Part shown: positions 3,437-59,150 of the stretch, in pieces
Numbering within the stretch: the stretch's first letter is position 1
Layout: each line of letters opens with the position of its first letter
NCBI RefSeq assembly: GCF_058153355.1
Contig: NZ_CM177019.1
Direction: 5' to 3' (one strand)
Length of the DNA: 64,000 nt
Notes under the pieces: model-generated
Database searches by the model: none
Seen by the model: the letters and a program-made list of their open reading frames with translations, nothing else
What the model was told of the DNA's origin: nothing
Position numbers and translations under genes: made by a program

Positions 3437-5101
<1,665 letters not shown>

Positions 5102-5116
5102 CAGGTCAGCACCGAT

Positions 5117-5149
5117 GCCTGATAAGACGCTCGCTGCGTTTTATCAGGC
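5117..5149. terminator. Hairpin between convergent dtpD and phr (gcctgataa ... ttatcaggc), likely bidirectional terminator / REP-like
   Basis: Perfect 9-bp inverted repeat with 15-nt loop located between two convergent stops. Confidence 0.5.
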
Positions 5150-39737: not shown

Positions 39738-40069
39738 CTTATTCCCCCTACGAGAACCCTATTTGGCTCGTTTAAAGCCGTATTTTTATTTTGCTGCAAA
39801 TTGTACTGCCGATGTTCTGTAATCAGATTGTTAGATCATCTGCTACAGAGTGTGTGAAAATTTAATTCGTATCGCAAATTAAACGCGTGTCTTTTGTGAG
39901 TTTTGTCACCAAATATCGTTATCATCACTCCCTTTTACTGGCTAAACCAGAAAACTTATTTTATCATTCAAAAAATCAGGTCGGATTGACGCCTGTCTGC
40001 GCAAATCCAGGTTACGCTTAAAGATGCCTAATCCGCCAACGGCTTACATTTTACTTACTGAGGTGAATA
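39738..40069. promoter_or_regulatory. Divergent nagE / nagBACD promoter region (NagC and CRP sites expected)
   Basis: 332-bp AT-rich intergenic region between divergently oriented operons; individual sites not resolved by eye. Confidence 0.5.
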
Positions 40070-42078
<2,009 letters not shown>

Positions 42079-42086
42079 GAGAAAGT

Positions 42087-43307
42087 ATGACACCAGGCGG
42101 ACAAGCTCAGATAGGTAATGTTGATCTCGTAAAACAGCTTAACAGCGCGGCGGTTTATCGCCTGATTGACCAGTATGGGCCAATCTCGCGGATTCAGATT
42201 GCCGAGCAAAGCCAGCTTGCCCCCGCCAGCGTAACAAAAATTACGCGTCAGCTTATCGAACGCGGGCTGATTAAAGAAGTTGATCAGCAGGCCTCCACCG
42301 GGGGCCGCCGCGCTATCTCTATCGTCACCGAAACCCGCAATTTCCACGCAATCGGCGTACGGCTTGGTCGTCACGACGCCACCATCACCCTGTTTGATCT
42401 CAGCAGCAAAGTGCTGGCAGAAGAACATTACCCGCTGCCAGAACGTACCCAGCAGACGCTGGAACATGCCCTGCTGAATGCCATTGCTCAGTTTATTGAT
42501 AGCTACCAGCGCAAACTGCGCGAGCTGATCGCCATTTCCGTGATCCTGCCAGGGCTTGTTGACCCGGACAGCGGCAAAATTCATTACATGCCGCATATTC
42601 AGGTGGAAAACTGGGGACTGGTAGAAGCACTGGAAGAGCGTTTTAAAGTGACCTGTTTCGTCGGTCACGATATCCGTAGTCTGGCACTGGCAGAGCACTA
42701 CTTCGGTGCAAGTCAGGATTGCGAAGATTCCATTCTGGTGCGTGTCCATCGCGGGACCGGGGCCGGGATTATCTCTAATGGGCGCATTTTTATCGGCCGC
42801 AACGGCAACGTCGGTGAAATTGGCCATATTCAGGTCGAACCGCTGGGTGAACGCTGCCACTGCGGCAACTTTGGCTGCCTGGAAACTATCGCCGCCAACG
42901 CTGCCATTGAACAACGGGTGTTGAATCTGTTAAAGCAGGGCTACCAGAGCCGTGTGCCACTGGACGACTGCACCATCAAAACTATCTGCAAAGCCGCGAA
43001 CAAAGGCGATAGCCTGGCGTCGGAAGTGATTGAGTATGTCGGTCGTCATCTGGGCAAAACCATCGCCATTGCTATCAACTTATTTAATCCGCAAAAAATT
43101 GTTATTGCCGGTGAAATCACCGAAGCCGATAAAGTGCTGCTCCCTGCTATTGAAAGCTGCATTAATACCCAGGCGCTGAAGGCGTTTCGTACTAATCTGC
43201 CGGTGGTACGTTCTGAGCTGGATCACCGCTCGGCAATCGGCGCTTTTGCGCTGGTAAAACGCGCCATGCTCAACGGTATTTTGCTCCAGCATTTGCTGGA
43301 AAATTAA
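42087..43307 (+). CDS. nagC: ROK-family transcriptional repressor NagC
   Basis: 406 aa; N-terminal helix-turn-helix and ROK domain with CxCGxxGC. Confidence 0.9.
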   Translation: MTPGGQAQIGNVDLVKQLNSAAVYRLIDQYGPISRIQIAEQSQLAPASVTKITRQLIERGLIKEVDQQASTGGRRAISIVTETRNFHAIGVRLGRHDATITLFDLSSKVLAEEHYPLPERTQQTLEHALLNAIAQFIDSYQRKLRELIAISVILPGLVDPDSGKIHYMPHIQVENWGLVEALEERFKVTCFVGHDIRSLALAEHYFGASQDCEDSILVRVHRGTGAGIISNGRIFIGRNGNVGEIGHIQVEPLGERCHCGNFGCLETIAANAAIEQRVLNLLKQGYQSRVPLDDCTIKTICKAANKGDSLASEVIEYVGRHLGKTIAIAINLFNPQKIVIAGEITEADKVLLPAIESCINTQALKAFRTNLPVVRSELDHRSAIGAFALVKRAMLNGILLQHLLEN

Positions 43308-43354
43308 TGTGCTTTTATAGTGGCGCTTATTGTTGTCAATATTCTGGGTAGTCC

Positions 43355-44107
43355 ATGACCATTAAAAATGTAATTTGCGATATCGACGGCGTGCTGATGC
43401 ACGATAACGTCGCCGTACCGGGTGCAGCGGAATTTTTGCACGGGATTATGGATAAAGGCCTGCCGCTGGTGTTGCTGACCAACTATCCTTCGCAGACCGG
43501 GCAAGATCTGGCGAACCGCTTTGCCACTGCGGGTGTCGATGTGCCGGACAGCGTGTTTTATACCTCCGCGATGGCGACCGCCGATTTCCTGCGTCGCCAG
43601 GAAGGTAAGAAAGCGTATGTGGTGGGCGAAGGCGCACTGATTCATGAACTGTACAAAGCCGGTTTCACTATTACCGATGTGAACCCTGATTTTGTGATTG
43701 TTGGCGAAACGCGTTCCTACAACTGGGACATGATGCATAAAGCAGCCTATTTCGTCGCTAACGGTGCACGCTTTATCGCCACCAACCCGGACACCCACGG
43801 GCGCGGTTTTTATCCGGCCTGTGGCGCGCTATGCGCGGGGATCGAAAAAATCTCCGGACGTAAACCGTTCTATGTTGGTAAGCCGAGTCCGTGGATCATC
43901 CGCGCAGCATTAAACAAAATGCAGGCGCATTCGGAAGAAACGGTGATTGTCGGCGATAACTTGCGCACCGACATTCTGGCGGGCTTCCAGGCCGGTCTGG
44001 AGACGATTCTGGTGCTTTCTGGTGTTTCATCGCTCGACGATATCGACAGTATGCCGTTCCGCCCAAGCTGGATTTACCCGTCAGTCGCTGAAATCGACGT
44101 TATCTGA
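43355..44107 (+). CDS. nagD: HAD-family UMP phosphatase NagD (UmpH)
   Basis: 250 aa; HAD motif I (CDIDGVL). Confidence 0.9.
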   Translation: MTIKNVICDIDGVLMHDNVAVPGAAEFLHGIMDKGLPLVLLTNYPSQTGQDLANRFATAGVDVPDSVFYTSAMATADFLRRQEGKKAYVVGEGALIHELYKAGFTITDVNPDFVIVGETRSYNWDMMHKAAYFVANGARFIATNPDTHGRGFYPACGALCAGIEKISGRKPFYVGKPSPWIIRAALNKMQAHSEETVIVGDNLRTDILAGFQAGLETILVLSGVSSLDDIDSMPFRPSWIYPSVAEIDVI

Positions 44108-44180
44108 ATACCACCCACGTCTGCGGACGTGGTTGGCTCTGATGACAAACGCCAAACTGCCTGATGCGCTACGCTTATCA

Positions 44181-45407
<1,227 letters not shown>

Positions 45408-45783
45408 CATGCCTGCAATCTGGGAAACCGGGGTAGAAAAAAACTTGCAGGCCATAACAGTATCTACGCAGCTCCTGCAATATATTGAATTTTCATGCTT
45501 TTGTAGGCAGGATAAGGCGTTCACGCCGCATCCGGCATGAACAAATCGCACTTTGTCAGCAATTTGGCCCCCGTAAAATATAACCATTTAATAAAACCCG
45601 CTAAAAATTATCGATTCATCAATAAATACATCCTCACACCAGACCTTTTTTCACCAATCGACAATCACCATTACGTTTTTTATTCCCCCCCTGCCAAATC
45701 GCTTGCGCACAGTGCTGCTTTGCGGCATTTTTTTAAACAAGCAAACACAACAAGCAACAAATACCAGGTTAACGGAGAAGGTT

Positions 45784-47448
45784 ATGTGTTCAATTTTTGG
45801 CGTATTCGATATCAAAACAGACGCAGTTGAGCTGCGTAAGAAAGCACTCGAGCTGTCACGCCTGATGCGTCATCGTGGCCCGGACTGGTCCGGTATTTAT
45901 GCCAGCGATAACGCCATTCTCGCCCACGAACGTCTGTCCATTGTTGACGTTAACGCGGGGGCGCAACCTCTCTACAACCAACAAAAAACGCATGTGCTGG
46001 CGGTAAACGGTGAAATCTACAACCACCAGGCATTGCGCGCTGAATATGGCGATCGTTACCAGTTCCAGACCGGGTCTGACTGTGAAGTGATCCTCGCGCT
46101 GTATCAGGAAAAAGGGCCGGAATTTCTCGACGATTTGCAGGGCATGTTCGCTTTTGCCCTGTACGACAGCGAAAAAGATGCGTATCTGATTGGTCGCGAC
46201 CATCTGGGGATCATCCCACTGTATATGGGCTATGACGAACATGGTCAGCTGTATGTGGCCTCAGAAATGAAAGCCCTGGTGCCGGTATGCCGCACGATTA
46301 AAGAGTTCCCGGCGGGGAGCTATTTGTGGAGTCAGGACGGCGAAATCCGTTCTTATTATCACCGCGACTGGTTCGACTACGATGCGGTGAAAGATAACGT
46401 GACCGACAAAAACGAGCTGCGTCAGGCGCTGGAAGATTCCGTTAAAAGCCATCTGATGTCTGACGTGCCTTACGGTGTGCTGCTTTCTGGTGGTCTGGAT
46501 TCCTCAATTATTTCCGCGATCACCAAGAAATACGCCGCCCGTCGCGTGGAAGATCAGGAACGCTCTGAAGCCTGGTGGCCGCAGCTGCACTCCTTTGCTG
46601 TAGGTCTGCCGGGTTCACCGGATCTGAAGGCAGCCCAGGAAGTGGCAAACCATCTGGGCACTGTGCATCATGAAATTCACTTCACTGTACAGGAAGGTCT
46701 GGATGCCATCCGCGATGTTATTTACCACATCGAAACCTATGACGTGACGACTATCCGCGCTTCAACGCCGATGTATTTAATGTCGCGTAAGATCAAGGCG
46801 ATGGGCATTAAAATGGTGCTGTCCGGTGAAGGTTCTGATGAAGTGTTTGGCGGTTATCTCTACTTCCACAAAGCACCAAACGCCAAAGAGCTACATGAAG
46901 AGACGGTGCGTAAACTGCTGGCCCTGCATATGTATGATTGCGCGCGTGCCAACAAAGCGATGTCAGCCTGGGGCGTGGAAGCGCGCGTTCCGTTCCTCGA
47001 CAAGAAATTCCTCGACGTGGCAATGCGTATTAACCCACAGGATAAAATGTGCGGTAACGGCAAAATGGAAAAACACATCCTGCGTGAATGTTTTGAAGCG
47101 TATCTGCCTGCAAGCGTGGCCTGGCGGCAGAAAGAGCAGTTTTCCGATGGCGTCGGTTACAGTTGGATAGACACTCTGAAAGAAGTGGCGGCGCAGCAGG
47201 TTTCTGATCAACAACTGGAAACTGCCCGTTTCCGCTTCCCGTACAACACGCCGACCTCAAAAGAAGCGTATCTGTACCGGGAGATCTTTGAAGAACTGTT
47301 CCCGCTACCGAGCGCCGCTGAGTGTGTACCGGGCGGCCCGTCCGTCGCGTGTTCTTCCGCTAAAGCGATTGAATGGGATGAGGCGTTCAAGAAAATGGAC
47401 GATCCGTCTGGTCGTGCGGTTGGCGTTCACCAGTCGGCCTATAAGTAA
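45784..47448 (+). CDS. asnB: Asparagine synthetase B (glutamine-hydrolysing)
   Basis: 554 aa from MCSIFGVFDIK (N-terminal nucleophile Cys2); maximal ORF over-extends. Confidence 0.9.
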   Translation: MCSIFGVFDIKTDAVELRKKALELSRLMRHRGPDWSGIYASDNAILAHERLSIVDVNAGAQPLYNQQKTHVLAVNGEIYNHQALRAEYGDRYQFQTGSDCEVILALYQEKGPEFLDDLQGMFAFALYDSEKDAYLIGRDHLGIIPLYMGYDEHGQLYVASEMKALVPVCRTIKEFPAGSYLWSQDGEIRSYYHRDWFDYDAVKDNVTDKNELRQALEDSVKSHLMSDVPYGVLLSGGLDSSIISAITKKYAARRVEDQERSEAWWPQLHSFAVGLPGSPDLKAAQEVANHLGTVHHEIHFTVQEGLDAIRDVIYHIETYDVTTIRASTPMYLMSRKIKAMGIKMVLSGEGSDEVFGGYLYFHKAPNAKELHEETVRKLLALHMYDCARANKAMSAWGVEARVPFLDKKFLDVAMRINPQDKMCGNGKMEKHILRECFEAYLPASVAWRQKEQFSDGVGYSWIDTLKEVAAQQVSDQQLETARFRFPYNTPTSKEAYLYREIFEELFPLPSAAECVPGGPSVACSSAKAIEWDEAFKKMDDPSGRAVGVHQSAYK

Positions 47449-47826
47449 GAAAGGCGGTACTGCCCCGGAGAAATCCGGGGCTGTTTCAGTTATTGAGCTG
47501 CTTGTTGATTCTCATATGCAGTAAGGAAATGTTCCGGGTTTGCCACATCACTGTTTGACAACTCATCACTGTAGGCCAGTACTTCATAGATTAATTTCCT
47601 ACCACTATTGTTGAATTCCGAATTTCATCCTGTATGACAAAAGAATGGCTGTAGGGTGGGGAAAAAACACAAAGTAAACAATAATTGACGAATATAGCGC
47701 CACGCTGTTCGCAACCTAACCAAACAGTCACTTTCGAGCAATTTTCCTTGAAAAAGAGGTTGACGCTGCAAGGCTCTATACGCATAATGCGCCCCGCAAC
47801 GCCGATAAGGTATCGCGAAAAAAAGA

Positions 47827-47903
47827 TGGCTACGTAGCTCAGTTGGTTAGAGCACATCACTCATAATGATGGGGTCACAGGTTCGAATCCCGTCGTAGCC
47901 ACC
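47827..47903 (+). tRNA. metT: tRNA-Met (elongator, anticodon CAU)
   Basis: 77-nt cloverleaf ggctacgtagctcag...ctCATaa...gtagccacca. Confidence 0.9.
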
Positions 47904-47911
47904 ATCTTTTT

Positions 47912-47996
47912 TGCGGGAGTGGCGAAATTGGTAGACGCACCAGATTTAGGTTCTGGCGCCGCAAGGTGTGCGAGTTCAAGTCTCGCCTCCCGCACC
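47912..47996 (+). tRNA. leuW: tRNA-Leu (anticodon UAG)
   Basis: 85-nt sequence with long variable arm, ends ...cccgcacca. Confidence 0.85.
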
Positions 47997-48019
47997 ATTC
48001 ACCAGAAAGCGTTGTACGG

Positions 48020-48094
48020 ATGGGGTATCGCCAAGCGGTAAGGCACCGGTTTTTGATACCGGCATTCCCTGGTTCGAATCCAGGTACCCCAGCC
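48020..48094 (+). tRNA. glnU: tRNA-Gln (anticodon UUG)
   Basis: 75-nt tggggtatcgccaagcggtaaggcaccggtttTTGat... Confidence 0.9.
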
Positions 48095-48129
48095 ATCTTC
48101 TTCGAATAAGCGGTTCACCGCCCGGTTAT

Positions 48130-48204
48130 TGGGGTATCGCCAAGCGGTAAGGCACCGGTTTTTGATACCGGCATTCCCTGGTTCGAATCCAGGTACCCCA
48201 GCCA
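48130..48204 (+). tRNA. glnW: tRNA-Gln (anticodon UUG), tandem copy
   Basis: Identical to the 48020-48094 copy. Confidence 0.9.
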
Positions 48205-48219
48205 TCGAAGAAACAATCT

Positions 48220-48296
48220 GGCTACGTAGCTCAGTTGGTTAGAGCACATCACTCATAATGATGGGGTCACAGGTTCGAATCCCGTCGTAGCCACCA
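48220..48296 (+). tRNA. metU: tRNA-Met (elongator, anticodon CAU), second copy
   Basis: Identical to the 47827-47903 copy. Confidence 0.9.
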
Positions 48297-48344
48297 AATT
48301 CTGAATGTGTCGAATGCGTTCGGCAAATTCACAAACCAATTTGT

Positions 48345-48419
48345 TGGGGTATCGCCAAGCGGTAAGGCACCGGATTCTGATTCCGGCATTCCGAGGTTCG
48401 AATCCTCGTACCCCAGCCA
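48345..48419 (+). tRNA. glnV: tRNA-Gln (anticodon CUG)
   Basis: 75-nt ...ccggattCTGattccgg... Confidence 0.9.
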
Positions 48420-48456
48420 ATTTATTCAAGACGCTTATATTGTAAGTGCACCCAGT

Positions 48457-48531
48457 TGGGGTATCGCCAAGCGGTAAGGCACCGGATTCTGATTCCGGCA
48501 TTCCGAGGTTCGAATCCTCGTACCCCAGCCA
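48457..48531 (+). tRNA. glnX: tRNA-Gln (anticodon CUG), tandem copy
   Basis: Identical to the 48345-48419 copy. Confidence 0.9.
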
Positions 48532-48540
48532 CATTAAAAA

Positions 48541-48570
48541 AACTCGCTTCGGCGAGCTTTTTGCTTTTCT
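48541..48570 (+). terminator. Rho-independent terminator closing the tRNA operon
   Basis: ctcgcttcggcgag hairpin followed by ctttttgcttttc. Confidence 0.75.
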
Positions 48571-48619
48571 GCGTATATTCAATGTCGAATGCGATGTTGA
48601 CACGTCTTATTCTTCAAAG

Positions 48620-48655
48620 TCGGATGCGACGCTGATGCGTCTTATCCGACCTACA
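48620..48655. repeat. REP element
   Basis: gtcggatgcgacgctgatgcgtcttatccgacctac. Confidence 0.75.
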
Positions 48656-48684
48656 GTTGGCATGCATCCGTCAATGTTGTAAGG

Positions 48685-49860
48685 CTACAACCCTAACGCA
48701 TATTTCAGCGCCTGCCGTTTCAATACGCCAGCACGCTCCGCCGCCATTAACCCGAGATTACGCATAAAACGCAGTGGCGGCAGATTATTGCTGAATCCGG
48801 CATAAAACAGATCCATACCGCTTTGCATAATGAAGTTATCCGCCATACGCCGCATCTGGTAACGCTTGAGGACAGGATAACTGGCCCACGCTTCACCGTA
48901 GCTGCGGGCATTCACCAGAACGTCAATCAGCGCATCAACATCGCGATAACCGAGGTTAACCCCCTGCCCCGCCAACGGATGAATGGTGTGCGCGGCATCG
49001 CCCACCAGCGCAAGCCCTGGTTGCACATACTGCAACGCATGGCGGCGCGTCAGCGGAAACGCACCAGCGGCGAGTGGCATCACGTACCCAAGACGCGACG
49101 GGAAATGCTTCGCGATTTCCGCCTGTAACTGCGCCATATTCATATTCTGCAACTGGCGAATGCGTGCCGGAGAGTCATACCACACCAGCGATGCCCAGTT
49201 ATCAAACAGCGGCAGAAACGCACGAGGTCCATCCGGGGTAAATTGCTGCCAGGTGCTGTCGCCGGGATCGTTCTCACACTGTACGCTAATCAACATACAC
49301 GACTGTGCATACTGCCAGGCATGAACGCCAATTCCCGCCATCTGCCGCACCTGCGAATTTGCGCCGTCGGCACCAATCACCAGCTTCGCGCGGATCGTTT
49401 CACCGCCCTTCAGTTCCAGCTCCTGAAGATCATTATGGCGATGCAGCGCAATCAGCGAGCCTGGCACACGTAACGTTACTTTCGGATGCGCTTCCAGCGC
49501 CTGCCACAGCGCCTGTTGCAGGACAGTGTTTTCCACCATATAGCCAAGCAACGGCAGCTTCAATTCGGCTGCATCAAACACCACATGCGCCGTTTCCCAC
49601 TCCCACGTTTCCAGTCTGCGATAAGGATGGCAACGCATGGCCTGTACCGCGTCCCAGACGCCTAAACCTTTAAGCAATGATACCGAAGCCGCACTAATCG
49701 CCGAGATCCGCACGTCAGGCTGGCTGTCAGCGACAAACGGTGCAGGTTGGGCATGTTCGATAACCGTTACCGAAAATCCGTGCTGAGCCAGTCCCAGCGC
49801 CAGTGCGCCGCCGACCATTCCTCCGCCGACAATGGCAATTTCCGTTGGTTGATTTGTCAT
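48685..49860 (-). CDS. ubiF: 2-octaprenyl-3-methyl-6-methoxy-1,4-benzoquinol hydroxylase
   Basis: 391 aa from MTNQPTEIAIVGGGMVGG (FAD-binding GxGxxG). Confidence 0.85.
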   Translation of the reverse strand: MTNQPTEIAIVGGGMVGGALALGLAQHGFSVTVIEHAQPAPFVADSQPDVRISAISAASVSLLKGLGVWDAVQAMRCHPYRRLETWEWETAHVVFDAAELKLPLLGYMVENTVLQQALWQALEAHPKVTLRVPGSLIALHRHNDLQELELKGGETIRAKLVIGADGANSQVRQMAGIGVHAWQYAQSCMLISVQCENDPGDSTWQQFTPDGPRAFLPLFDNWASLVWYDSPARIRQLQNMNMAQLQAEIAKHFPSRLGYVMPLAAGAFPLTRRHALQYVQPGLALVGDAAHTIHPLAGQGVNLGYRDVDALIDVLVNARSYGEAWASYPVLKRYQMRRMADNFIMQSGMDLFYAGFSNNLPPLRFMRNLGLMAAERAGVLKRQALKYALGL

Positions 49861-50005
49861 GGTCAATCATCCTGTTAGCAATATGCTTTAAGTTTACAGG
49901 ATTTTTACCCCCAAGGGCTGATAACGCTCATACTGGTCACAACGGCAGCAAAGCATTACACTATGCGCCCTGCATTCCTGGCTACTATTTCGCAAGAGCA
50001 AGTCG

Positions 50006-51430
50006 ATGACCAAAAAACTCCATATTAAAACCTGGGGCTGTCAGATGAATGAGTACGATTCATCGAAGATGGCCGATCTGCTGGATGCCACCCACGGCTA
50101 TCAACTGACCGACGTGGCGGAAGAAGCGGATGTGCTGCTGCTGAACACCTGCTCAATCCGCGAGAAGGCTCAGGAAAAAGTCTTCCATCAGTTGGGTCGC
50201 TGGAAACTGTTAAAAGAGAAGAATCCAGACCTGATTATCGGCGTCGGCGGCTGCGTGGCATCGCAAGAAGGCGAGCACATTCGCCAGCGCGCCCACTATG
50301 TTGATATTATTTTTGGGCCGCAAACGCTGCACCGTCTGCCGGAGATGATCAACTCCGTGCGCGGCGATCGCAGCCCGGTTGTAGATATCAGCTTCCCGGA
50401 AATCGAGAAGTTTGACCGTCTGCCGGAACCGCGTGCCGAAGGACCAACCGCGTTTGTCTCCATCATGGAAGGCTGCAATAAATATTGCACCTACTGTGTG
50501 GTGCCTTACACCCGTGGTGAAGAGGTAAGCCGTCCTTCCGACGATATTCTGTTTGAGATTGCCCAGCTTGCGGCTCAGGGCGTGCGTGAAGTCAACCTGC
50601 TCGGTCAGAACGTGAACGCCTGGCGTGGTGAGAACTACGACGGCACCACCGGATCGTTTGCCGATCTGCTGCGTCTGGTTGCGGCGATCGACGGGATCGA
50701 TCGTATTCGCTTTACCACCAGCCATCCGATCGAATTCACCGACGATATAATCGAGGTGTACCGCGACACGCCGGAGCTGGTGAGCTTCCTGCATCTGCCG
50801 GTTCAGAGCGGTTCCGATCGCATTCTAAACCTGATGGGACGTACCCACACGGCGCTGGAGTACAAAGCGATCATCCGTAAATTGCGTGCGGCGCGTCCTG
50901 ATATTCAGATCAGTTCTGACTTCATTGTCGGCTTCCCGGGCGAAACCACCGAAGACTTCGAAAAAACGATGAAGCTGATTGCCGACGTCAATTTCGACAT
51001 GAGCTACAGCTTTATCTTCTCCGCTCGTCCAGGAACGCCTGCCGCCGATATGGTTGATGATGTTCCGGAAGAAGAGAAGAAGCAGCGTCTGTATATTCTG
51101 CAAGAGCGCATTAATCAGCAAGCGATGGCATGGAGCCGCCGTATGCTCGGCACCACCCAGCGTATTCTGGTAGAAGGTACATCGCGTAAGAGCATCATGG
51201 AGCTTTCCGGTCGTACTGAAAATAACCGCGTGGTCAACTTCGAAGGTACGCCGGATATGATCGGTAAATTCGTCGATGTAGAAATTACCGACGTCTACCC
51301 GAACTCTCTGCGCGGTAAAGTGGTGCGTACTGAAGATGAAATGGGTCTGCGCGTGGCAGAAACACCGGAATCGGTGATTGCCCGTACCCGCAAAGAAAAT
51401 GACCTGGGCGTGGGTTATTATCAGCCGTAA
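50006..51430 (+). CDS. miaB: tRNA-i6A37 methylthiotransferase
   Basis: 474 aa; radical-SAM CxxxCxxC (CNKYCTYC) and TRAM domain. Confidence 0.9.
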
Positions 51431-51582
51431 TTCTCAGGCCCGCCGTTCCGGTGGGCCTTGTTTTTTCTCTCTTTATCCCCATCTTTATCGCAATGCTTGC
51501 GCCTTTTTCCTGTGGCGTGAATAATTTCCTTATAGGCCGGTGAATGTTCAGCTTCCGGCGGCATACAGATAAGAGGAACGGT

Positions 51583-52623
51583 TTGAACATAGACACTCGC
51601 GAAATCACTCTGGAGCCAGCAAACAACGCACGTCTGTTGAGCCTGTGCGGCCCGTTTGATGACAACATCAAACAACTCGAACGCCGTCTCGGCATCGAAA
51701 TCAATCGCCGCGATAACCACTTTAAACTGACCGGCCGTCCGATTTGCGTCACCGCTGCGGCAGACATTCTGCGTAGCCTGTATGTCGATACTGCCCCGAT
51801 GCGCGGTCAGATTCAGGATATCGAGCCGGAACAGATCCACCTGGCGATTAAAGAAGCGCGCGTGCTGGAACAAAGTGCGGAGAGCGTGCCGGAGTATGGC
51901 AAAGCGGTCAATATCAAGACCAAACGAGGTGTAATTAAACCGCGCACGCCAAACCAGGCGCAGTACATCGCCAATATTCTCGACCATGATATTACCTTCG
52001 GCGTTGGCCCGGCGGGTACGGGTAAAACCTACCTGGCAGTGGCTGCGGCAGTTGATGCCCTGGAGCGTCAGGAAATTCGCCGTATTCTGCTGACTCGTCC
52101 GGCGGTAGAAGCCGGTGAGAAACTGGGCTTCCTGCCTGGCGATTTAAGCCAGAAAGTGGACCCGTATCTGCGCCCGCTGTATGACGCGCTGTTTGAAATG
52201 TTGGGCTTTGAGAAAGTCGAGAAGCTGATTGAGCGCAACGTTATTGAAGTCGCGCCACTGGCCTATATGCGTGGTCGTACGCTGAACGACGCGTTTATCA
52301 TTCTTGATGAGAGCCAGAACACCACCATCGAACAGATGAAGATGTTCCTGACTCGTATCGGTTTTAACTCAAAAGCGGTTATTACCGGCGATGTCACGCA
52401 GATCGACTTACCGCGTAATACTAAATCAGGTTTACGTCACGCTATCGAAGTGTTAGCCGATGTCGAAGAGATCAGCTTTAACTTCTTCCACAGCGAAGAC
52501 GTGGTTCGTCACCCGGTGGTAGCGCGTATCGTTAACGCTTATGAAGCCTGGGAAGAAGCCGAACAAAAACGAAAAGCGGCGCTGGCAGCAGAACGCAAGC
52601 GCGAAGAACAGGAACAAAAATGA
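51583..52623 (+). CDS. ybeZ: PhoH-like ATPase YbeZ
   Basis: Walker A GPAGTGKT; start uncertain (possible TTG at 51583 versus ATG at 51544). Confidence 0.8.
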
Positions 52624-53087
52624 GTCAGGTGATCCTCGATTTACAACTGGCATGTGAAGATAATTCCGGGTTACCGGAAGAGAGCCAGTTTCAGACATGG
52701 CTGAATGCGGTGATCCCGCAGTTTCAGGAAGAATCGGAAGTGACGATTCGCGTGGTCGATACCGCCGAAAGCCACAGTCTCAATCTGACCTATCGCGGTA
52801 AGGATAAGCCGACCAACGTGCTCTCCTTCCCGTTTGAAGTACCGCCTGGCATGGAGATGTCGCTGCTGGGCGATCTGGTTATCTGCCGTCAGGTCGTTGA
52901 GAAGGAAGCACAAGAGCAAGGCAAACCACTGGAAGCGCACTGGGCGCATATGGTGGTGCACGGCAGTCTGCATTTGTTAGGTTACGATCACATCGAAGAC
53001 GACGAAGCAGAAGAAATGGAAGCCCTCGAAACAGAGATTATGCTTGCTCTGGGCTATGAGGATCCGTACATTGCCGAGAAAGAATAA
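52620..53087 (+). CDS. ybeY: Endoribonuclease YbeY (rRNA maturation)
   Basis: 155 aa with [11 protein letters not shown] zinc motif; overlaps ybeZ stop. Confidence 0.9.
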
Positions 53088-53176
53088 TTTGCCAGGCATT
53101 TGACTGGCAGACATCCCCGCCGTTGGTGATTAACGACGGCGTTTTGATTAACCAACATGAGAACCCATACGACGCC

Positions 53177-54055
53177 ATGAGCGACGACAATTCACACAGT
53201 AGTGACACGATAAGCAACAAGAAGGGATTTTTCTCCCTGTTACTCAGCCAACTTTTCCACGGTGAACCGAAAAACCGTGACGAACTGCTGGCGCTGATCC
53301 GTGATTCCGGGCAGAACGACCTTATCGACGAAGATACGCGCGATATGCTCGAAGGGGTGATGGACATCGCAGACCAACGCGTTCGCGACATCATGATCCC
53401 CCGCTCCCAGATGATTACCCTGAAACGCAACCAGACGCTGGACGAATGCCTTGATGTCATCATCGAGTCCGCCCACTCACGTTTCCCGGTGATTAGCGAA
53501 GACAAAGATCACATTGAAGGGATTCTGATGGCGAAAGACTTGCTGCCGTTTATGCGCAGCGATGCAGAAGCCTTCAGCATGGACAAAGTGTTACGTCAGG
53601 CGGTTGTCGTTCCTGAAAGTAAGCGCGTAGACCGGATGCTGAAAGAGTTTCGCTCTCAGCGTTACCACATGGCGATCGTCATTGACGAATTCGGTGGGGT
53701 TTCCGGTCTGGTGACCATTGAAGATATCCTGGAACTGATTGTTGGTGAGATTGAAGACGAGTATGACGAAGAAGATGATATCGACTTCCGTCAGCTGAGT
53801 CGTCATACCTGGACCGTGCGCGCACTGGCTTCCATCGAAGATTTCAACGAAGCCTTCGGCACCCACTTTAGCGATGAAGAAGTCGACACCATCGGAGGTC
53901 TGGTGATGCAGGCATTTGGGCATCTCCCGGCGCGTGGCGAAACCATCGACATCGACGGTTACCAGTTCAAAGTGGCGATGGCCGACAGTCGGCGTATTAT
54001 TCAGGTTCATGTCAAAATCCCGGATGACTCACCCCAGCCAAAGCTGGATGAATAA
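53177..54055 (+). CDS. corC: Magnesium/cobalt efflux protein CorC (CBS-pair plus CorC_HlyC domains)
   Basis: 292 aa from [11 protein letters not shown]. Confidence 0.85.
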
Positions 54056-54079
54056 AACCGAAACTGGATAGATAACTAC

Positions 54080-55618
54080 ATGGCTTTTGCCTCATTAATT
54101 GAACGCCAGCGCATTCGCCTGCTGCTGGCGTTATTATTCGGTGCCTGCGGAACGCTGGCCTTCTCTCCTTACGATGTCTGGCCTGCGGCGATTATTTCGC
54201 TGATGGGACTTCAGGCGCTCACCTTTAACCGCCGTCCACTCCAGTCTGCCTCTATTGGCTTTTGCTGGGGATTTGGCCTGTTTGGCAGCGGTATTAACTG
54301 GGTCTATGTCAGCATCGCGACCTTTGGCGGAATGCCTGGCCCGGTTAACATCTTCCTGGTGGTGCTGCTGGCGGCGTATTTGTCGCTGTATACCGGACTG
54401 TTTGCTGGCGTGCTGTCGCGTCTGTGGCCGAAAACCACCTGGCTGCGCGTGGCGATTGCCGCCCCTGCTCTCTGGCAAGTGACCGAGTTTCTGCGCGGTT
54501 GGGTGCTGACTGGCTTCCCGTGGTTGCAGTTCGGCTATAGCCAGATTGACGGTCCGTTAAAAGGACTGGCACCGATAATGGGCGTGGAAGCCATTAACTT
54601 CCTGCTGATGATGGTAAGCGGCCTGCTGGCACTGGCGTTGGTCAAACGCAACTGGCGTCCGCTGGTGGTGGCCGTCGTGCTGTTTGCCCTTCCCTTCCCG
54701 CTACGTTACATCCAGTGGTTTACCCCGCAACCGGAGAAAACCATTCAGGTTTCGATGGTTCAGGGCGACATTCCGCAATCGCTGAAGTGGGATGAAGGCC
54801 AGCTTCTCAATACGCTGAAGATTTACTACAACGCAACGGCACCGCTGATGGGCAAGTCATCGCTGATTATCTGGCCTGAATCGGCGATAACCGACCTGGA
54901 AATTAATCAGCAGCCGTTCCTCAAAGCACTGGACGGTGAGTTGCGTGATAAAGGTAGCTCGCTGGTCACCGGGATTGTCGACGCGCGTCTCAATAAGCAG
55001 AATCGCTACGATACCTACAACACCATCATCACGCTGGGTAAAGGTGCACCGTATAGCTACGAATCAGCCGATCGCTATAACAAAAACCATCTGGTACCGT
55101 TTGGCGAGTTTGTCCCGCTGGAGTCGATTCTGCGTCCGTTAGCACCGTTCTTTGATCTGCCGATGTCGTCATTCAGCCGTGGACCATATATCCAACCACC
55201 GCTGTCGGTAAATGGTATTGAGCTTACTGCGGCTATTTGCTACGAGATCATTCTCGGCGAGCAAGTGCGCGATAACTTCCGCCCGGATACCGACTATCTG
55301 CTGACTATCTCCAACGATGCGTGGTTTGGTAAGTCTATTGGCCCATGGCAGCACTTTCAGATGGCGCGAATGCGTGCGCTGGAGCTGGCGCGCCCGCTGC
55401 TGCGTAGCACCAACAACGGCATTACGGCGGTGATTGGCCCGCAGGGTGAGATTCAGGCGATGATCCCGCAATTCACCCGCGAGGTGTTGACCACTAATGT
55501 GACGCCGACTACCGGACTCACACCGTACGCACGTACCGGCAACTGGCCGCTGTGGGTACTGACGGCACTGTTTGGTTTTGCCGCTGTGTTGATGAGACTG
55601 CGAGCACGTCAACGTTAA
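54080..55618 (+). CDS. lnt: Apolipoprotein N-acyltransferase
   Basis: 512 aa; N-terminal transmembrane segments plus C-terminal nitrilase-fold domain. Confidence 0.9.
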
Positions 55619-55748
55619 TGTGAATGATGCACTGGCCAGCAAAATCGCATCATTTTTGCAGGCCAGATAAACTGTTCACACCACATCCGGTATCAACAAA
55701 ACGTACTTTCTCATTGAGCTGTGGGGCGTGATTATCATGCCCCTTTTT

Positions 55749-57626
55749 TTACGGTTCAGGGATACAAGCCACATCGCCATATTGGGGATGCCGAATAATT
55801 GCCTGCGGATCAAGCGAGCGCGTCCTGTCCATTTGGATTAACCCGTTCTTCGCCATAACAAATATCTTTCTACCATCCGCTGAAAAACGAAGATGATTAA
55901 CGTAGCTGGCAGGATAAACGCCAATAATCTGCCCGGCATTAATATTGAGCAGGATGACATAACCTTGCAGGCCATATGACACCAACGCTAAATACTGACC
56001 GTCCGGGCTAATACCCTCAACAGAATAAACGCTCCTGCTACACCATTGCGTCATAATGCTGGCTTGTTGATCCCCTGTGCTTATACGTGAAATCCCCTGA
56101 CTATCGGCAAAAATAACCTCACCATTTTTTGGTCGGAATCCCATCGCAGAAACGACACCACGCGCATCACCTGCGGGAAAGTCTTCTTTCTGATGCGTGA
56201 TGGTATTGATCCGCACGATGTTACCTCTGCCTGCTCCTGGAACCAGTAATGTTTTTTCATCCGGGGAAAGTGCCATAACCCAGGCGCCTGGTTTACCGCT
56301 CGTCCCCGTCCCGTCGTATTTCTCCAGTGCGATATCCGCCACATGCTGATAAGTCACCAGATCAATCGCTGACACACTATTACTGGTGCGATTCATCACC
56401 CAGGCTTTTGTGCCATCACGCGAGAGGATAAGGCTGTCAGGATGGGCGCCGGTGGTAATCGACTGAATAATCTCCCCCGTCGCCACGTTAACGACCGATA
56501 ATGCATTCGCTTCAAATGAAGTCGCATACAGCAACTTTTCATCGGGGCTTAACACCAGCGATCTGACGCCCTGATCTTTACAGCCACCACAATGTTTGAC
56601 TGACTTTTCTTTCGCTATGGGCGCTGTAAAGGTATGCAGGATTTTCTTTTGTCCGAGGTCGAAAACAACAATACTGTTCGTGTTTTCAATTGCGGCATAT
56701 AACGTATTACCATCCCGATTGATCGCCATATCATGGATATCGGCAATCTCAGCGAGCAAATCACCACTGGCCTGTTCACGACTTACCGGAGCGGATAATG
56801 TTTCCCTGAGGGCATTGCGTTCCTCCGCTAACTGCTGCTTTTTATGCCGTCGCTCTTGTTCAATCTCCTGCGGATAAAACTCTTCACGCAGGCTTTGCCT
56901 GACCTGCAAAACTGATTCATCAATCTGCTGCTGCACAAGCCAGATAGCCCCGGTCAGTAGAAGACTACCCGCAACAATAATCCCACCTTCCGTAACGAGC
57001 CGGTTTTGCCCAGATAAACGCGCACTCAGCCAACCCAACGCTCCACCTGCCATCAGGCCGCCAATGTGGCAAGCGTTATCTATTCCTGCTTGCCGGGCAC
57101 CATACAACAGTGTCAGCGCCACCATACCCAACAGAGAAAATACTCGCCGCTGGTTTTTATGGTGTGTACCCGCACCTGAAGAAAGCTGTGTTGCTATCGC
57201 AGCGCCAGCTATTCCCATAATTGCCCCGGATGCCCCAACGCTGATGACTATCTGCTCACTTTCGCGTAACGCATAACAGGCGCTGATGAGCCCACCAAAG
57301 ATGCCGGAGAATAACCAGATAATCAGGAGTCGCCATTTCCCCAGTATCCGTTCCGCCACTGTCCCCACCACCAGGAGTGCAAACATATTCATCAGCAAAT
57401 GGGAAAAACTACTGTGCAGAAAAACACTGCTCAATAAGCGCCAGGGTTCACCCGACAACGTGAGAGAGGCAACGTTAGCGCCGAGATGGATGAGTGCGGA
57501 TTGATCGACTTCTTCATAACTCATCCATTGTGCGAGGTAACAAAATATCCCAACACATAGCGCAAAAAGGATCAGGGTTATTGCGGGTAATTGAACATTT
57601 AACGGCTTAACCGAAGATGCAGACAT
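55749..57626 (-). CDS. Rhomboid-family intramembrane serine protease fused to a C-terminal beta-propeller (YVTN-like repeat) domain
   Basis: About 625 aa from MSASSVKPLN (AAGGAAG ribosome-binding site); rhomboid signatures GASGAIMG (GxSG) and HIGG; coiled-coil linker; repeated S/T-rich beta-strand motifs (e.g. NSIVVFDL, NALSVVNVATGE, NSVSAIDL). Confidence 0.7.
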   Translation of the reverse strand: MSASSVKPLNVQLPAITLILFALCVGIFCYLAQWMSYEEVDQSALIHLGANVASLTLSGEPWRLLSSVFLHSSFSHLLMNMFALLVVGTVAERILGKWRLLIIWLFSGIFGGLISACYALRESEQIVISVGASGAIMGIAGAAIATQLSSGAGTHHKNQRRVFSLLGMVALTLLYGARQAGIDNACHIGGLMAGGALGWLSARLSGQNRLVTEGGIIVAGSLLLTGAIWLVQQQIDESVLQVRQSLREEFYPQEIEQERRHKKQQLAEERNALRETLSAPVSREQASGDLLAEIADIHDMAINRDGNTLYAAIENTNSIVVFDLGQKKILHTFTAPIAKEKSVKHCGGCKDQGVRSLVLSPDEKLLYATSFEANALSVVNVATGEIIQSITTGAHPDSLILSRDGTKAWVMNRTSNSVSAIDLVTYQHVADIALEKYDGTGTSGKPGAWVMALSPDEKTLLVPGAGRGNIVRINTITHQKEDFPAGDARGVVSAMGFRPKNGEVIFADSQGISRISTGDQQASIMTQWCSRSVYSVEGISPDGQYLALVSYGLQGYVILLNINAGQIIGVYPASYVNHLRFSADGRKIFVMAKNGLIQMDRTRSLDPQAIIRHPQYGDVACIPEP

Positions 57627-57959
57627 AAGGTGATTCTTCCTTGAAAAGACAGGTAAAAAAGCATTTTTCCCGTGTGCAGTTATCATCCCGGCAAACGTCC
57701 CATACCGAAAAGTTAACTCTGTCCGAAATATGACTTTTTCAGCCTGAAATTACAATCGTAATTAATTCACCCCTAAGTATTTTTTGGCATGTAAGTTGCT
57801 TTATTTACTGTGTAAGCAATGAAATCAGCCGCAACGCAACCGGGTTGCACCAACACAAATCAGCGGTAGCACCAAAAAGGTGCGGTTTAAGAGTTTTGCT
57901 TCGGAATGGTGCGGCGCATCTCGCAAAAACAAACAATAAAACATCAATATCTTTACATT

Positions 57960-58081: not shown

Positions 58082-58990
58082 ATGCAATTACGTAAACCTG
58101 CCACAGCAATCCTGGCCCTGGCGCTTTCCGCAGGACTGGCACAGGCAGATGACGCCGCCCCGGCAGCAGGCAGTACGCTGGACAAAATCGCCAAAAACGG
58201 TGTGATTGTCGTCGGTCACCGTGAATCTTCAGTACCTTTCTCTTATTACGACAATCAGCAAAAAGTGGTGGGTTACTCGCAGGATTACTCCAACGCCATT
58301 GTTGAAGCAGTGAAAAAGAAACTCAACAAACCGGACTTGCAGGTGAAATTGATTCCGATCACCTCACAAAACCGTATTCCGCTGCTGCAAAACGGCACTT
58401 TCGATTTTGAATGTGGTTCTACCACCAACAACGTCGAACGCCAGAAACAGGCGGCTTTCTCCGACACTATTTTCGTGGTCGGTACGCGCCTGCTGACAAA
58501 AAAAGGCGGCGATATTAAAGATTTTGCCGATCTGAAAGACAAAGCCGTCGTAGTCACTTCCGGCACCACCTCTGAAGTTTTGCTCAACAAACTGAATGAA
58601 GAGCAAAAAATGAACATGCGCATCATCAGCGCCAAAGATCACGGTGACTCTTTCCGCACCCTGGAAAGCGGTCGTGCCGTTGCCTTTATGATGGATGACG
58701 CTCTGTTAGCCGGTGAGCGAGCGAAAGCGAAGAAACCAGACAACTGGGAAATCGTCGGCAAGCCGCAGTCTCAGGAAGCCTACGGTTGCATGTTGCGTAA
58801 AGACGATCCGCAGTTCAAAAAGCTGATGGATGACACTATCGCTCAGGTGCAGACCTCCGGTGAAGCGGAAAAATGGTTTGATAAGTGGTTCAAAAATCCA
58901 ATTCCGCCGAAAAACCTGAACATGAATTTCGAACTGTCGGACGAAATGAAAGCACTGTTCAAAGAACCGAATGACAAGGCACTGAACTAA
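58082..58990 (+). CDS. gltI: Glutamate/aspartate ABC transporter periplasmic binding protein
   Basis: 302 aa from MQLRKPATAILALALSAGLAQA (signal peptide). Confidence 0.9.
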   Translation: MQLRKPATAILALALSAGLAQADDAAPAAGSTLDKIAKNGVIVVGHRESSVPFSYYDNQQKVVGYSQDYSNAIVEAVKKKLNKPDLQVKLIPITSQNRIPLLQNGTFDFECGSTTNNVERQKQAAFSDTIFVVGTRLLTKKGGDIKDFADLKDKAVVVTSGTTSEVLLNKLNEEQKMNMRIISAKDHGDSFRTLESGRAVAFMMDDALLAGERAKAKKPDNWEIVGKPQSQEAYGCMLRKDDPQFKKLMDDTIAQVQTSGEAEKWFDKWFKNPIPPKNLNMNFELSDEMKALFKEPNDKALN

Positions 58991-58994
58991 TTAC

Positions 58995-59150
58995 AAGAAC
59001 CAGGGGCGGAAATTCCAGCCCTCTCGATTGTTACGTAGCACGGACAGACTATACGCCTGATGGTCGTTCCCCATCGGGCCTGAAAACCGCAATACGCTGG
59101 GTAACAATCTTCGAGGGTAGCAGTTAACGCTGCTACCCTTTTTTTTCTGG
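58995..59150 (+). ncRNA. sroC: Candidate SroC-type sRNA from the gltI-gltJ spacer
   Basis: 169-bp structured intergenic segment ending in a strong terminator hairpin gggtagcagttaacgctgctaccc plus T8. Confidence 0.45.

Follow-up and report, generated by a model that had tools for sequence, protein, structure and literature searches.

The window analysed here, a stretch of 64,000 nucleotides from contig NZ_CM177019.1, carries between lnt and gltI an uninterrupted minus-strand reading frame (55749..57686) of 645 aa from its first ATG, which the initial annotation had described as a possibly strain-variable rhomboid protease fused to a beta-propeller. The reading frame proved to be real and intact, and the gene, referred to below as rhom7, was assigned to 55749-57626 on the minus strand with a product of 625 aa. 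The features of the locus are as follows.

54080-55618, plus strand: lnt, one flank of rhom7, with gltI as the other
55603..57782, no strand assigned: presence/absence segment of ~2.2 kb, which includes the last 5 codons of lnt
55723..55743, plus strand: GC-rich hairpin with a T7 run after it, in the spacer where lnt and rhom7 converge (terminator scan, consensus match only)
55749..57626, minus strand: rhom7 coding sequence, 625 codons plus the stop at 55749-55751 (ORF list; RefSeq CDS of equal extent)
57636..57641, minus strand: AGGAAG, the ribosome-binding site, with a 9-nt spacer to the start ATG (57626)
57652..57686, minus strand: non-coding leader containing the alternative ATG (57684-57686) and a T6 run within 57652-57662

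The start codon had been left ambiguous between 57626, favoured for its ribosome-binding site, and 57686, and comparison of alleles bore out the former. The GGAAG core of the binding site is kept at equal spacing in Escherichia alleles and in two loci encoding homologues with 49-52% identity, L004 (attributed to K. aerogenes) and L005. In the present allele only the T6 run brings the upstream ATG into frame. Of five other Escherichia-type alleles, four have this ATG out of frame; the run is T5 in L008-L011, which shifts the frame, and in L004 and L005 the leader frame is interrupted by stop codons. The long 645-aa form was rejected on these grounds together with the conserved AGGAAG, and the true start of rhom7, as judged from the alleles compared, is 57626. 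This extent agrees with RefSeq, in which the equivalent CDS of a 99%-identical E. coli genome measures 1878 nt, is named 'rhomboid family intramembrane serine protease' and corresponds to 55749-57626. The exact protein is already on record under the same name (P0269), its organism being given in public records as Escherichia fergusonii or E. coli. The hairpin at 55723..55743, which also stands just 3' of rhom7, is likely to be the lnt terminator. The divergent region between rhom7 and gltI measures 455 bp. A consensus scan of the rhom7 strand found no sigma-70-like promoter, in itself an uninformative outcome.

Strain variability was confirmed by a survey in which 3231 of 5426 complete E. coli genomes (~60%) held at least 80% of the region. 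Blastn comparison with K-12 (L001) and MRSN346647 (L002) placed the left breakpoint at 55602/55603 and the right one between 57783 and 57837, and where E. coli lacks rhom7, REP-like sequence of about 113-167 bp takes the place of the segment. Some alleles of rhom7 are frameshifted or truncated at the 5' end, independently of one another. The initial annotation had further placed an IS5 copy at this position in K-12. K-12 indeed has IS5 in the lnt-gltI spacer and no rhomboid gene there, but the notion of IS5 as the allelic alternative to the gene did not hold: the element lies further towards gltI, in the gltI upstream region, and MRSN346647, which is free of IS5, lacks the same ~2.2 kb. The proposal that IS5 replaced the gene in K-12 was consequently rejected, since strains with no IS5 are also without rhom7.

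The protein was divided into four regions, with residues of the motifs numbered from the start at 57626 (Met21 of the longer frame).

57018..57584, minus strand: rhomboid catalytic core, TM1-TM6, residues 15-203 (Pfam PF01694 and model helices)
57438-57443, minus strand: WR motif in loop L1
57228..57230, minus strand: TCC codon of catalytic Ser133, the position of the residue inactivated by S133A in Shigella sonnei Rhom7 (PMC7232013)
57066..57068, minus strand: CAC codon of catalytic His187, the position of the residue inactivated by H187A in the same protein (PMC7232013)
56931..57002, minus strand: seventh transmembrane helix, residues 209-232 (model helix), taking the chain from cytoplasm to periplasm
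56799..56918, minus strand: charged alpha-helical stalk, residues 237-276 (model helices 237-250 and 253-276), sequence ESVLQVRQSLREEFYPQEIEQERRHKKQQLAEERNALRE
55764..56762, minus strand: seven-bladed YVTN-type beta-propeller, residues ~289-621 (TIGR02276, AF2 model, 1L0Q)

Both motifs on which the rhomboid assignment had first been based, the serine in GASGAIMG and the histidine in HIGG, are present, and the Pfam Rhomboid profile PF01694 matched with E=1.1e-28 over model positions 2-140 of 143. The AF2 model places the helices of the core at residues 15-34, 74-95, 97-122, 132-149, 152-178 and 184-203. In addition to the WR motif, the core carries H76/N80 in TM2, GASG in TM4, and H187 with GxxxG in TM6, and W62, R63, H76, N80, G131-A132-S133-G134, H187, G190 and G194 were invariant in 18 of 18 full-length homologues. 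The N-terminal part aligned to the H. influenzae GlpG structure 2NR9 (E=8.8e-10) and also to the GlpG structure 2IC8, with the core motifs falling on the corresponding GlpG residues. A Foldseek search against the PDB listed propeller matches only and no rhomboid fold match; the rhomboid fold therefore rests on sequence profiles and model helices. From these, the protein is predicted to be a rhomboid intramembrane serine protease (MEROPS S54) with a six-helix core. The count of about six transmembrane helices originally proposed is corrected by the model, which predicts seven (6+1). A catalytically dead, rhomboid-like scaffold of the iRhom or Derlin kind, with a propeller that binds clients, might be considered because matching the core against PDB sequences also brings up the inactive iRhom1/2; the motifs (GxSG serine, TM6 histidine, WR and HxxxN) are nevertheless complete and invariant, and the ~94% identical S. 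sonnei orthologue has a proteolytic activity that either S133A or H187A abolishes (PMC7232013). The intact motifs and the active orthologue effectively refute the scaffold reading, which we consider scarcely credible.

Beyond the core, the AF2 model (mean pLDDT 81.7, pTM 0.57) shows seven transmembrane helices, a stalk and ~28 strands; with a pTM of only 0.57, it is no reliable guide to how the two domains lie relative to each other. The linker had been called a charged coiled coil and was found to be charged and helical, with ~40 residues between TM7 and the propeller. It is the seventh helix that would place the propeller in the periplasm. Lysine and arginine counts in the loops fit the positive-inside rule (3, 3 and 2 in those predicted to be cytoplasmic; 1, 1 and 1 in those predicted to be periplasmic), and these loops, together with conserved cysteine pairs in the propeller, predict that it faces the periplasm. 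The cysteines concerned, Cys346/Cys349 and Cys529/Cys621, were conserved in 15, 15, 16 and 11 of 18 homologues, respectively.

The C-terminal domain of ~330 aa, which had been read as a YVTN/WD40-like propeller from its repeated short strands, was upheld as a YVTN-type propeller by several comparisons. Two stretches matched the YVTN repeat model TIGR02276, which scored 53 bits (cut-off 27.85), and the ~40-residue repeat signature was strongest in blades 2-4. In the AF2 model the ~28 strands fall into seven four-stranded groups, with pLDDT for the most part at 80-96; this blade count was taken from the secondary-structure string and not from coordinates. The best Foldseek match in the PDB was the YVTN propeller 1L0Q (1.1e-16), followed by G-beta, both seven-bladed, and phmmer aligned five repeats to 1L0Q with E=1e-27. 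Only the generic repeat was shared with YncE (NF052280, 34.8 vs 400 bits) and the PQQ-associated family (TIGR03866, 51.3 vs 287.3 bits), and the lactonase and hydrazine-synthase families were rejected for the propeller since their models scored far below cut-off.

By sequence, the ORF is orthologous to Rhom7 of Shigella sonnei (SSON_0610, UniProt Q3Z4D6). The S. sonnei protein (P0005) had 94% identity at 100% coverage, so that ~6% of residues differ between it and the window allele; the published sequence has 625 aa, is collinear with the window protein and has the same N- and C-termini. Ser153 and His207 of the 645-aa frame become Ser133 and His187 when counted from Met21, which matches the catalytic numbering of Rhom7. 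The two proteins thus share length, termini, the Ser133/His187 dyad, a prediction of 7 TM helices and a C-terminal domain, and the seventh helix and large C-terminal domain that mark the Rhom7 group are present in the model of the window protein. Rhom7 was shown to be an active rhomboid protease that loses its activity on mutation to S133A or H187A (Liu et al., EMBO J 2020, PMC7232013); its dyad cuts transmembrane helices bearing a helix-destabilising proline (PMC7232013). Its targets include orphan, unassembled HybA and FdnH, which are Tat-exported Fe-S subunits, HybA being a substrate common to GlpG and Rhom7 in Shigella, and the first cut licenses further degradation of the orphan subunits, a form of membrane-protein quality control (PMC7232013). 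Cleavage of HybA and FdnH was seen only when Rhom7 was plasmid-expressed or over-expressed; native expression was too low for detectable cleavage, and deletion of rhom7 gave no phenotype (PMC7232013). In the same work Phobius predicted 7 TMDs, an artificial model substrate, the only one on which the C-terminal domain was tried, was cut without TM7 and this domain, and the nature of the domain was never identified (PMC7232013). Because Rhom7 of S. sonnei had already been published and tested (PMC7232013), the window gene is not new. The gene is known and annotated, and what is novel is the recognition of its C-terminal domain as a seven-bladed beta-propeller, predicted to be periplasmic.

The suggestion that rhomboid-propeller fusions are rare was also sustained: AFDB50 contains about six full-length clusters, and protein searches gave a handful of cases. 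The fusions occur in some Enterobacterales, other Gammaproteobacteria and Betaproteobacteria. When the C-terminal domain was searched against 1.84 billion representatives, the list was dominated by giant multi-repeat YVTN proteins, and among the matches listed three clusters (P0023, P0037 and P0266) combined a long domain alignment with a fusion-like size. This result supports the rarity of the fusion and gives no functional clue. An all-against-all comparison of ORFs at nine loci of distant fusions found nothing in common but the gene itself. Searches of the open-access literature found no bacterial rhomboid described as carrying a propeller or a YVTN domain, and no account of propeller-guided intramembrane proteolysis in one.

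The age of rhom7 at this locus was assessed from synteny and divergence. The 49-52% identical homologues in K. aerogenes and another enterobacterium lie at the same gltI/lnt position, and position and orientation are also the same in E. whittamii and Escherichia sp. MOD1-EC7003. Relative to L008-L011, dN/dS of rhom7 was about 0.17, and the rhomboid and propeller halves each gave 0.15-0.19, which suggests that the gene is still functional; omega was 0.15-0.2 over a dS of ~0.2, and the comparison with Klebsiella, where divergence is saturating, again gave about 0.15-0.2. The neighbours lnt, gltI and corC have an equal dS and an omega of 0-0.05, 3 to 10 times lower than that of rhom7. Given the K. 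aerogenes homologue at the same position, we regard rhom7 as an old resident under relaxed purifying selection, and the higher omega and frequent loss would fit a marginal function. Recent horizontal acquisition, with rhom7 as mobile-element cargo inserted between lnt and gltI, would account for its patchy presence, and is suggested by the presence/absence polymorphism, by the K-12 IS5 in the same spacer and by a protein far more divergent than those of the neighbours. Against it stand the identical position and orientation across these genera, a dS matching that of the flanking core genes, a GC content of 46-54% like that of the surroundings, and the IS5-free strains that are also without rhom7; moreover, neither flanking direct or inverted repeats nor mobility genes were found. 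Synteny across genera, neighbour-like dS and the absence of repeats and mobility genes led us to reject a mobile-element origin, which appears highly improbable.

The same data bear on whether rhom7 is a near-neutral, decaying accessory gene on course to be lost, whose product can still cut model substrates but plays no significant physiological part in Escherichia today. Its absence from ~40% of complete E. coli genomes, the independently frameshifted and 5'-truncated alleles, an omega of ~0.17 vs 0-0.05 for the neighbours, the lack of a consensus promoter in our scan, and the undetectable native cleavage and phenotype-free deletion of Rhom7 (PMC7232013) all speak for such decay. However, an omega of 0.15-0.2 is clear purifying selection on both domains, even against Klebsiella; different genera retain the full-length ORF, catalytic residues and ribosome-binding site at this one locus; and distant Proteobacteria still have full-length fusions in which the dyad is intact. 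We judge near-neutrality to be distinctly improbable. The reading that we hold with high confidence is that rhom7 encodes a Rhom7 orthologue, an active-type rhomboid of 6+1 TM helices with a stalk and a propeller predicted to be periplasmic, and is probably an old, vertically inherited resident. It would be weakly expressed and dispensable, with loss or disruption in many lineages of E. coli, K-12 among them.

As to mechanism, TM7 would carry the chain out of the cytoplasm, and a charged helical stalk of ~40 residues would lead to the propeller, which would sit on the periplasmic side, that of the folded domains of the known substrates. There it may serve as a substrate-selecting or regulatory exosite and not as part of the catalytic machinery. 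More specifically, and only tentatively, we propose that the propeller, held on its stalk, might read the folded periplasmic domain or the exposed assembly interface of orphan Tat-exported Fe-S subunits such as HybA and FdnH, or a periplasmic stress ligand, and thereby select the transmembrane helices that are open to cleavage by a core that would otherwise be promiscuous. A propeller that acts as a periplasmic ligand or stress sensor, or as an oligomerisation module, and switches the protease on or off with no docking of substrate, is a rather improbable alternative. It would agree with the finding that the C-terminal domain is not needed for cleavage of a model substrate, as expected of a regulatory add-on (PMC7232013), and with the long stalk, which in the model keeps the propeller away from the active site; other rhomboids are likewise regulated via extramembrane domains, YqgP sensing metal through an extra domain. 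Weighing against a sensor, we found no ligand-binding motif or enzyme-family membership (the YncE, lactonase and PQQ models lay below their cut-offs) and no conserved neighbouring genes that hint at a signal. Sequence alone cannot separate switching from docking.

Rhomboids are nearly universal, and very few bacterial members have known substrates or regulation. Rhom7 is among the few bacterial rhomboids with identified substrates, and a propeller on a stalk offers a testable idea for how it might choose orphan subunits, for which the small rhomboid-propeller fusion family defined here can be used. Because K-12 is without rhom7, a 'GlpG only' view of the E. coli rhomboid repertoire fails for ~60% of complete genomes. 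Beyond the propeller there is little new in the gene itself, which was already annotated and published.

Among known systems, the window protein shares its catalytic core and motifs with GlpG of E. coli and H. influenzae, the prototype 6-TM rhomboid. GlpG has an N-terminal cytoplasmic domain and neither a seventh helix nor a periplasmic domain, and identity with GlpG was rejected because the equivalogs TIGR04239 and NF008155 scored 42.9 vs 250 and 37.6 vs 335 bits. Rhombosortase (TIGR03902, 44.5 vs 84 bits) likewise fell below its equivalog cut-off. The nearest rhomboid cores outside the fusion family belong to TPR-carrying proteins, some labelled 'GluP', with 32-45% identity over the core. 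Providencia stuartii AarA, which is 30% identical to Rhom7 (PMC7232013), and GluP/YqgP have 6+1 TM helices and a C-terminus outside the cytoplasm, as predicted for the window protein. Whereas GluP/YqgP-type proteins carry an extracytoplasmic TPR, the window protein, in which the Pfam scan found no TPR family, has a beta-propeller on a helical stalk, and it is without the large N-terminal cytosolic domain of YqgP. The window domain has its seven-bladed fold in common with the YVTN propellers of the Methanosarcina surface-layer protein (1L0Q), YncE and the hydrazine synthase beta subunit; those propellers are soluble or part of a surface layer, whereas that of the window protein is tethered to an intramembrane protease.

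The ORF initially annotated between lnt and gltI was confirmed as intact, and the RefSeq CDS in a 99%-identical genome coincided exactly with window positions 55749-57626. One flank holds ybeZ, ybeY, corC and lnt, the other gltI, gltJ, gltK and gltL, and the GC content of the ORF (46-54%) was similar to that of its neighbours. The window contained the following features at this locus:

54080-55618, plus strand: lnt
55723-55750: a single GC-rich hairpin ending in T7 where lnt and rhom7 converge, its T-tract overlapping the rhom7 stop codon; the probable lnt terminator, which may also end rhom7 transcripts
55749-57686, minus strand: a single unbroken ORF in the window ORF list, containing rhom7
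58986-59148, plus strand: sroC sRNA in the gltI-gltJ spacer (Rfam RF00369, 173.9 bits, full length), as expected for the gltI operon

By megablast, the rhom7 region was present at a coverage of at least 80% in 3,231 of 5,426 complete E. coli genomes, where it was always annotated as 'rhomboid family intramembrane serine protease'. The exact window protein (P0269) carries the public-record names Escherichia fergusonii and E. coli, and the flanking 15.6 kb of core genes (window 40000-55600) showed only ~96.8% identity to most E. coli genomes. Taken together, these two results point to E. fergusonii or a nearby lineage as the origin of the window, which probably does not belong to E. coli in the strict sense.

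The product of this ORF is Rhom7, a protein already published, annotated and experimentally characterised, and the gene is therefore not novel. Rhom7 of Shigella sonnei is SSON_0610 (UniProt Q3Z4D6 according to a 2025 review) and owes its name to the seven TMDs that Phobius predicts in it (Liu et al., EMBO J 2020, PMC7232013). End to end, the window protein was 94% identical to an S. sonnei protein (P0005). The 625-aa sequence in Figure EV1 of that study begins MSASSVKPLNVQ and ends ACIPEP, as does the window protein. The S. sonnei orthologue is a Ser/His intramembrane protease whose targets are metastable TMDs with a proline in orphan subunits of respiratory complexes, and its cut licenses the degradation of these subunits; its catalytic residues are Ser133 and His187, and S133A or H187A abolishes cleavage of a TatA-TMD reporter (PMC7232013). 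Plasmid-expressed Rhom7 cut the TMDs of HybA, HybO and FdnH, and cut full-length HybA and FdnH only when these were orphaned from their partners, a reaction requiring a conserved TMD proline (FdnH Pro259, HybA Pro300). At its native level of expression, too low for this, no cleavage was detected, and a double rhomboid deletion had no phenotype (PMC7232013). The word 'propeller' occurs neither in Liu et al. (PMC7232013) nor in the 2025 review listing Rhom7, and our literature searches for a propeller or YVTN domain on a bacterial rhomboid found nothing relevant; Pfam propeller families are, however, precomputed on the public entries. The present analysis adds what the C-terminal domain is structurally and where it probably lies, settles the start codon and traces how the locus evolved.

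Two start codons had been proposed, with a preference for the downstream one. The window allele keeps the upstream ATG (57686) in frame only because a T-run within the GCTTTTTTACC motif (window 57652-57662) is T6; L008-L011, four further Escherichia-type alleles, have T5 there, which throws this ATG out of frame. Since, in addition, the leader of the 49-52% identical alleles contains stops, and all the alleles compared retain an AGGAAG site 9 nt ahead of the 57626 ATG, the start was placed at 57626, in agreement with RefSeq and with the residue numbering of Rhom7, and that at 57686 was dropped.

The reading of the N-terminal half as a rhomboid core held (Pfam PF01694, E=1.1e-28). With the Met at 57626 as residue 1, the serine of GASG is Ser133 and the histidine of HIGG is His187. 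Across 18 aligned full-length homologues, the most distant at 24% identity, the invariant positions included W62-R63 in the L1 loop, H76 and N80 in TM2, G131-A-S133-G134 in TM4, and H187, G190 and G194 in TM6. The N-terminal 240 residues aligned to H. influenzae GlpG (2NR9, E=8.8e-10) and also to E. coli GlpG structures. An AlphaFold2 model built from the 18-sequence alignment (mean pLDDT 81.7) contained seven transmembrane helices (15-34, 74-95, 97-122, 132-149, 152-178, 184-203 and 209-232) in place of the approximately six first counted, followed by two long helices (237-250 and 253-276); the inter-domain geometry of this model is unreliable because pTM was 0.57.

The C-terminal domain likewise turned out to be the YVTN/WD40-like propeller suggested earlier. 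The C-terminal 360 residues matched the YVTN repeat model TIGR02276 (53 bits against a cut-off of 27.85) and the solved YVTN propeller 1L0Q (E=1e-27, five repeat alignments), and in the AlphaFold2 model residues 289 to ~621 formed seven four-strand groups, ~28 strands in total. After 1L0Q, the top Foldseek match in the PDB (1.1e-16), came G-beta and WD40 propellers with seven blades. The computational results give a 6+1 TM core followed by a stalk and by a YVTN propeller of seven blades; the catalytic motifs and the propeller are conserved, and purifying selection acts on both. A periplasmic location is predicted for the propeller, consistent with the positive-inside pattern of the loops and with two cysteine pairs of the C-terminal domain that are well conserved, C346/C349 and C529/C621. 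This would place the propeller on the same side as the folded ferredoxin-type domains of known substrates. The propeller is not required for the chemistry, because Rhom7 lacking the C-terminal domain still cleaves a model substrate (PMC7232013); most likely it would act as a selectivity or regulatory exosite.

The expectation that the gene is strain-variable was correct, K-12 and MRSN346647 both lacking it. Alignment to rhom7-negative strains placed the left break of the segment at window 55602/55603, in the last five codons of lnt, and the right break between 57783 and 57837; in these strains ~113-167 bp of REP-like sequence replaces the missing ~2.2 kb, and neither repeats nor mobility genes were found in the segment flanks. 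Lnt is 512 aa in either case, ending ...RARQR in the window and ...RQRRK in K-12 and MRSN346647. The IS5 copy named in the initial reading does lie between lnt and gltI in K-12, where a transposase gene of IS5 and no rhomboid are found, but not as the allelic alternative to the gene: IS5 did not remove or replace rhom7, because MRSN346647 is IS5-free and also lacks it, and the K-12 copy (L001, the K-12 locus, 4147-5337) sits further towards gltI, near window 57978. That copy lies upstream of gltI, ~100 bp from the start of the gene and away from the deletion junction, and could affect gltIJKL expression in K-12.

Two contigs, one encoding P0038 (NCBI name Klebsiella aerogenes) and the other also enterobacterial, carry homologues of 49-52% identity at this position and in this orientation, and alleles 91-93% identical were at the lnt-gltI position in E. 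whittamii and Escherichia sp. MOD1-EC7003; Lnt, GltI, GltJ and CorC in the loci of these syntenic homologues were 83-100% identical to the window proteins. Short rhom7 contigs of 94-95% identity (L008, L009) came from MAGs labelled 'Collinsella sp.' and 'Proteobacteria bacterium', almost certainly Escherichia contamination.

Substitution rates in the comparisons with the Escherichia-type alleles L010 and L011
rhom7: dS 0.22-0.26; dN/dS 0.17-0.18
lnt, gltI and corC: dS 0.10-0.26; dN/dS 0.00-0.05

The rhomboid and propeller halves had similar dN/dS (0.15-0.19 for L010 and L011; 0.15-0.25 across L008-L011). Broken alleles were common and recurrent in E. coli assemblies (L026 2447-4323; L027 and L028 3001-4470), as a frameshift yielding a 199-aa rhomboid ORF and a 440-aa propeller ORF (640 members in the 90% cluster of the latter) or as a call of 489 aa truncated at its 5' end, once preceded by transposase and Mom genes; rhom7 fragments are mislabelled 'Outer membrane protein' in UniProt. 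The main rival reading, that rhom7 may be marginal and decaying, draws on this frequent loss, the low expression and the raised omega, yet omega remains well below 1 and the gene is conserved across genera. We conclude that rhom7 is old, vertically inherited, under real but relaxed purifying selection, and repeatedly lost. Overall, the initial interpretation of a strain-variable rhomboid protease with a propeller was supported, with corrections to helix number, IS5 and novelty.

The fusion is also as rare as had been claimed. Among the matches listed in a 5.8-billion-protein search, full-length fusions outside Escherichia/Shigella comprised a few enterobacterial clusters at 49-65% identity and others at 24-32%, including two Pseudoduganella species. 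A species-representative genome scan added Budvicia, Andreprevotia, Paraburkholderia, Trinickia and Burkholderia, and AFDB50 added Cedecea neteri and Phytopseudomonas, with about six full-length clusters in all. When the C-terminal domain was searched against 1.84 billion representatives, giant YVTN-repeat proteins made up most of the list, and only three clusters among the matches listed aligned over a long stretch of the domain in proteins similar in size to the fusion. All nine distant loci examined had a full-length ORF and shared no other gene. At one, in Pseudoduganella armeniaca (L007 2957-4931 and 11833-13105), the homologue lies near SCO1/SenC, SBP56, DsbD-like and thioredoxin-like genes of periplasmic copper and redox function, a neighbourhood that is probably coincidental because the remaining distant loci do not share it. 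After the fusions, the closest rhomboid cores were proteins with C-terminal TPR domains, some source-labelled GluP, so that Rhom7 looks like a 6+1 rhomboid whose extracytoplasmic repeat module is a propeller rather than TPR.
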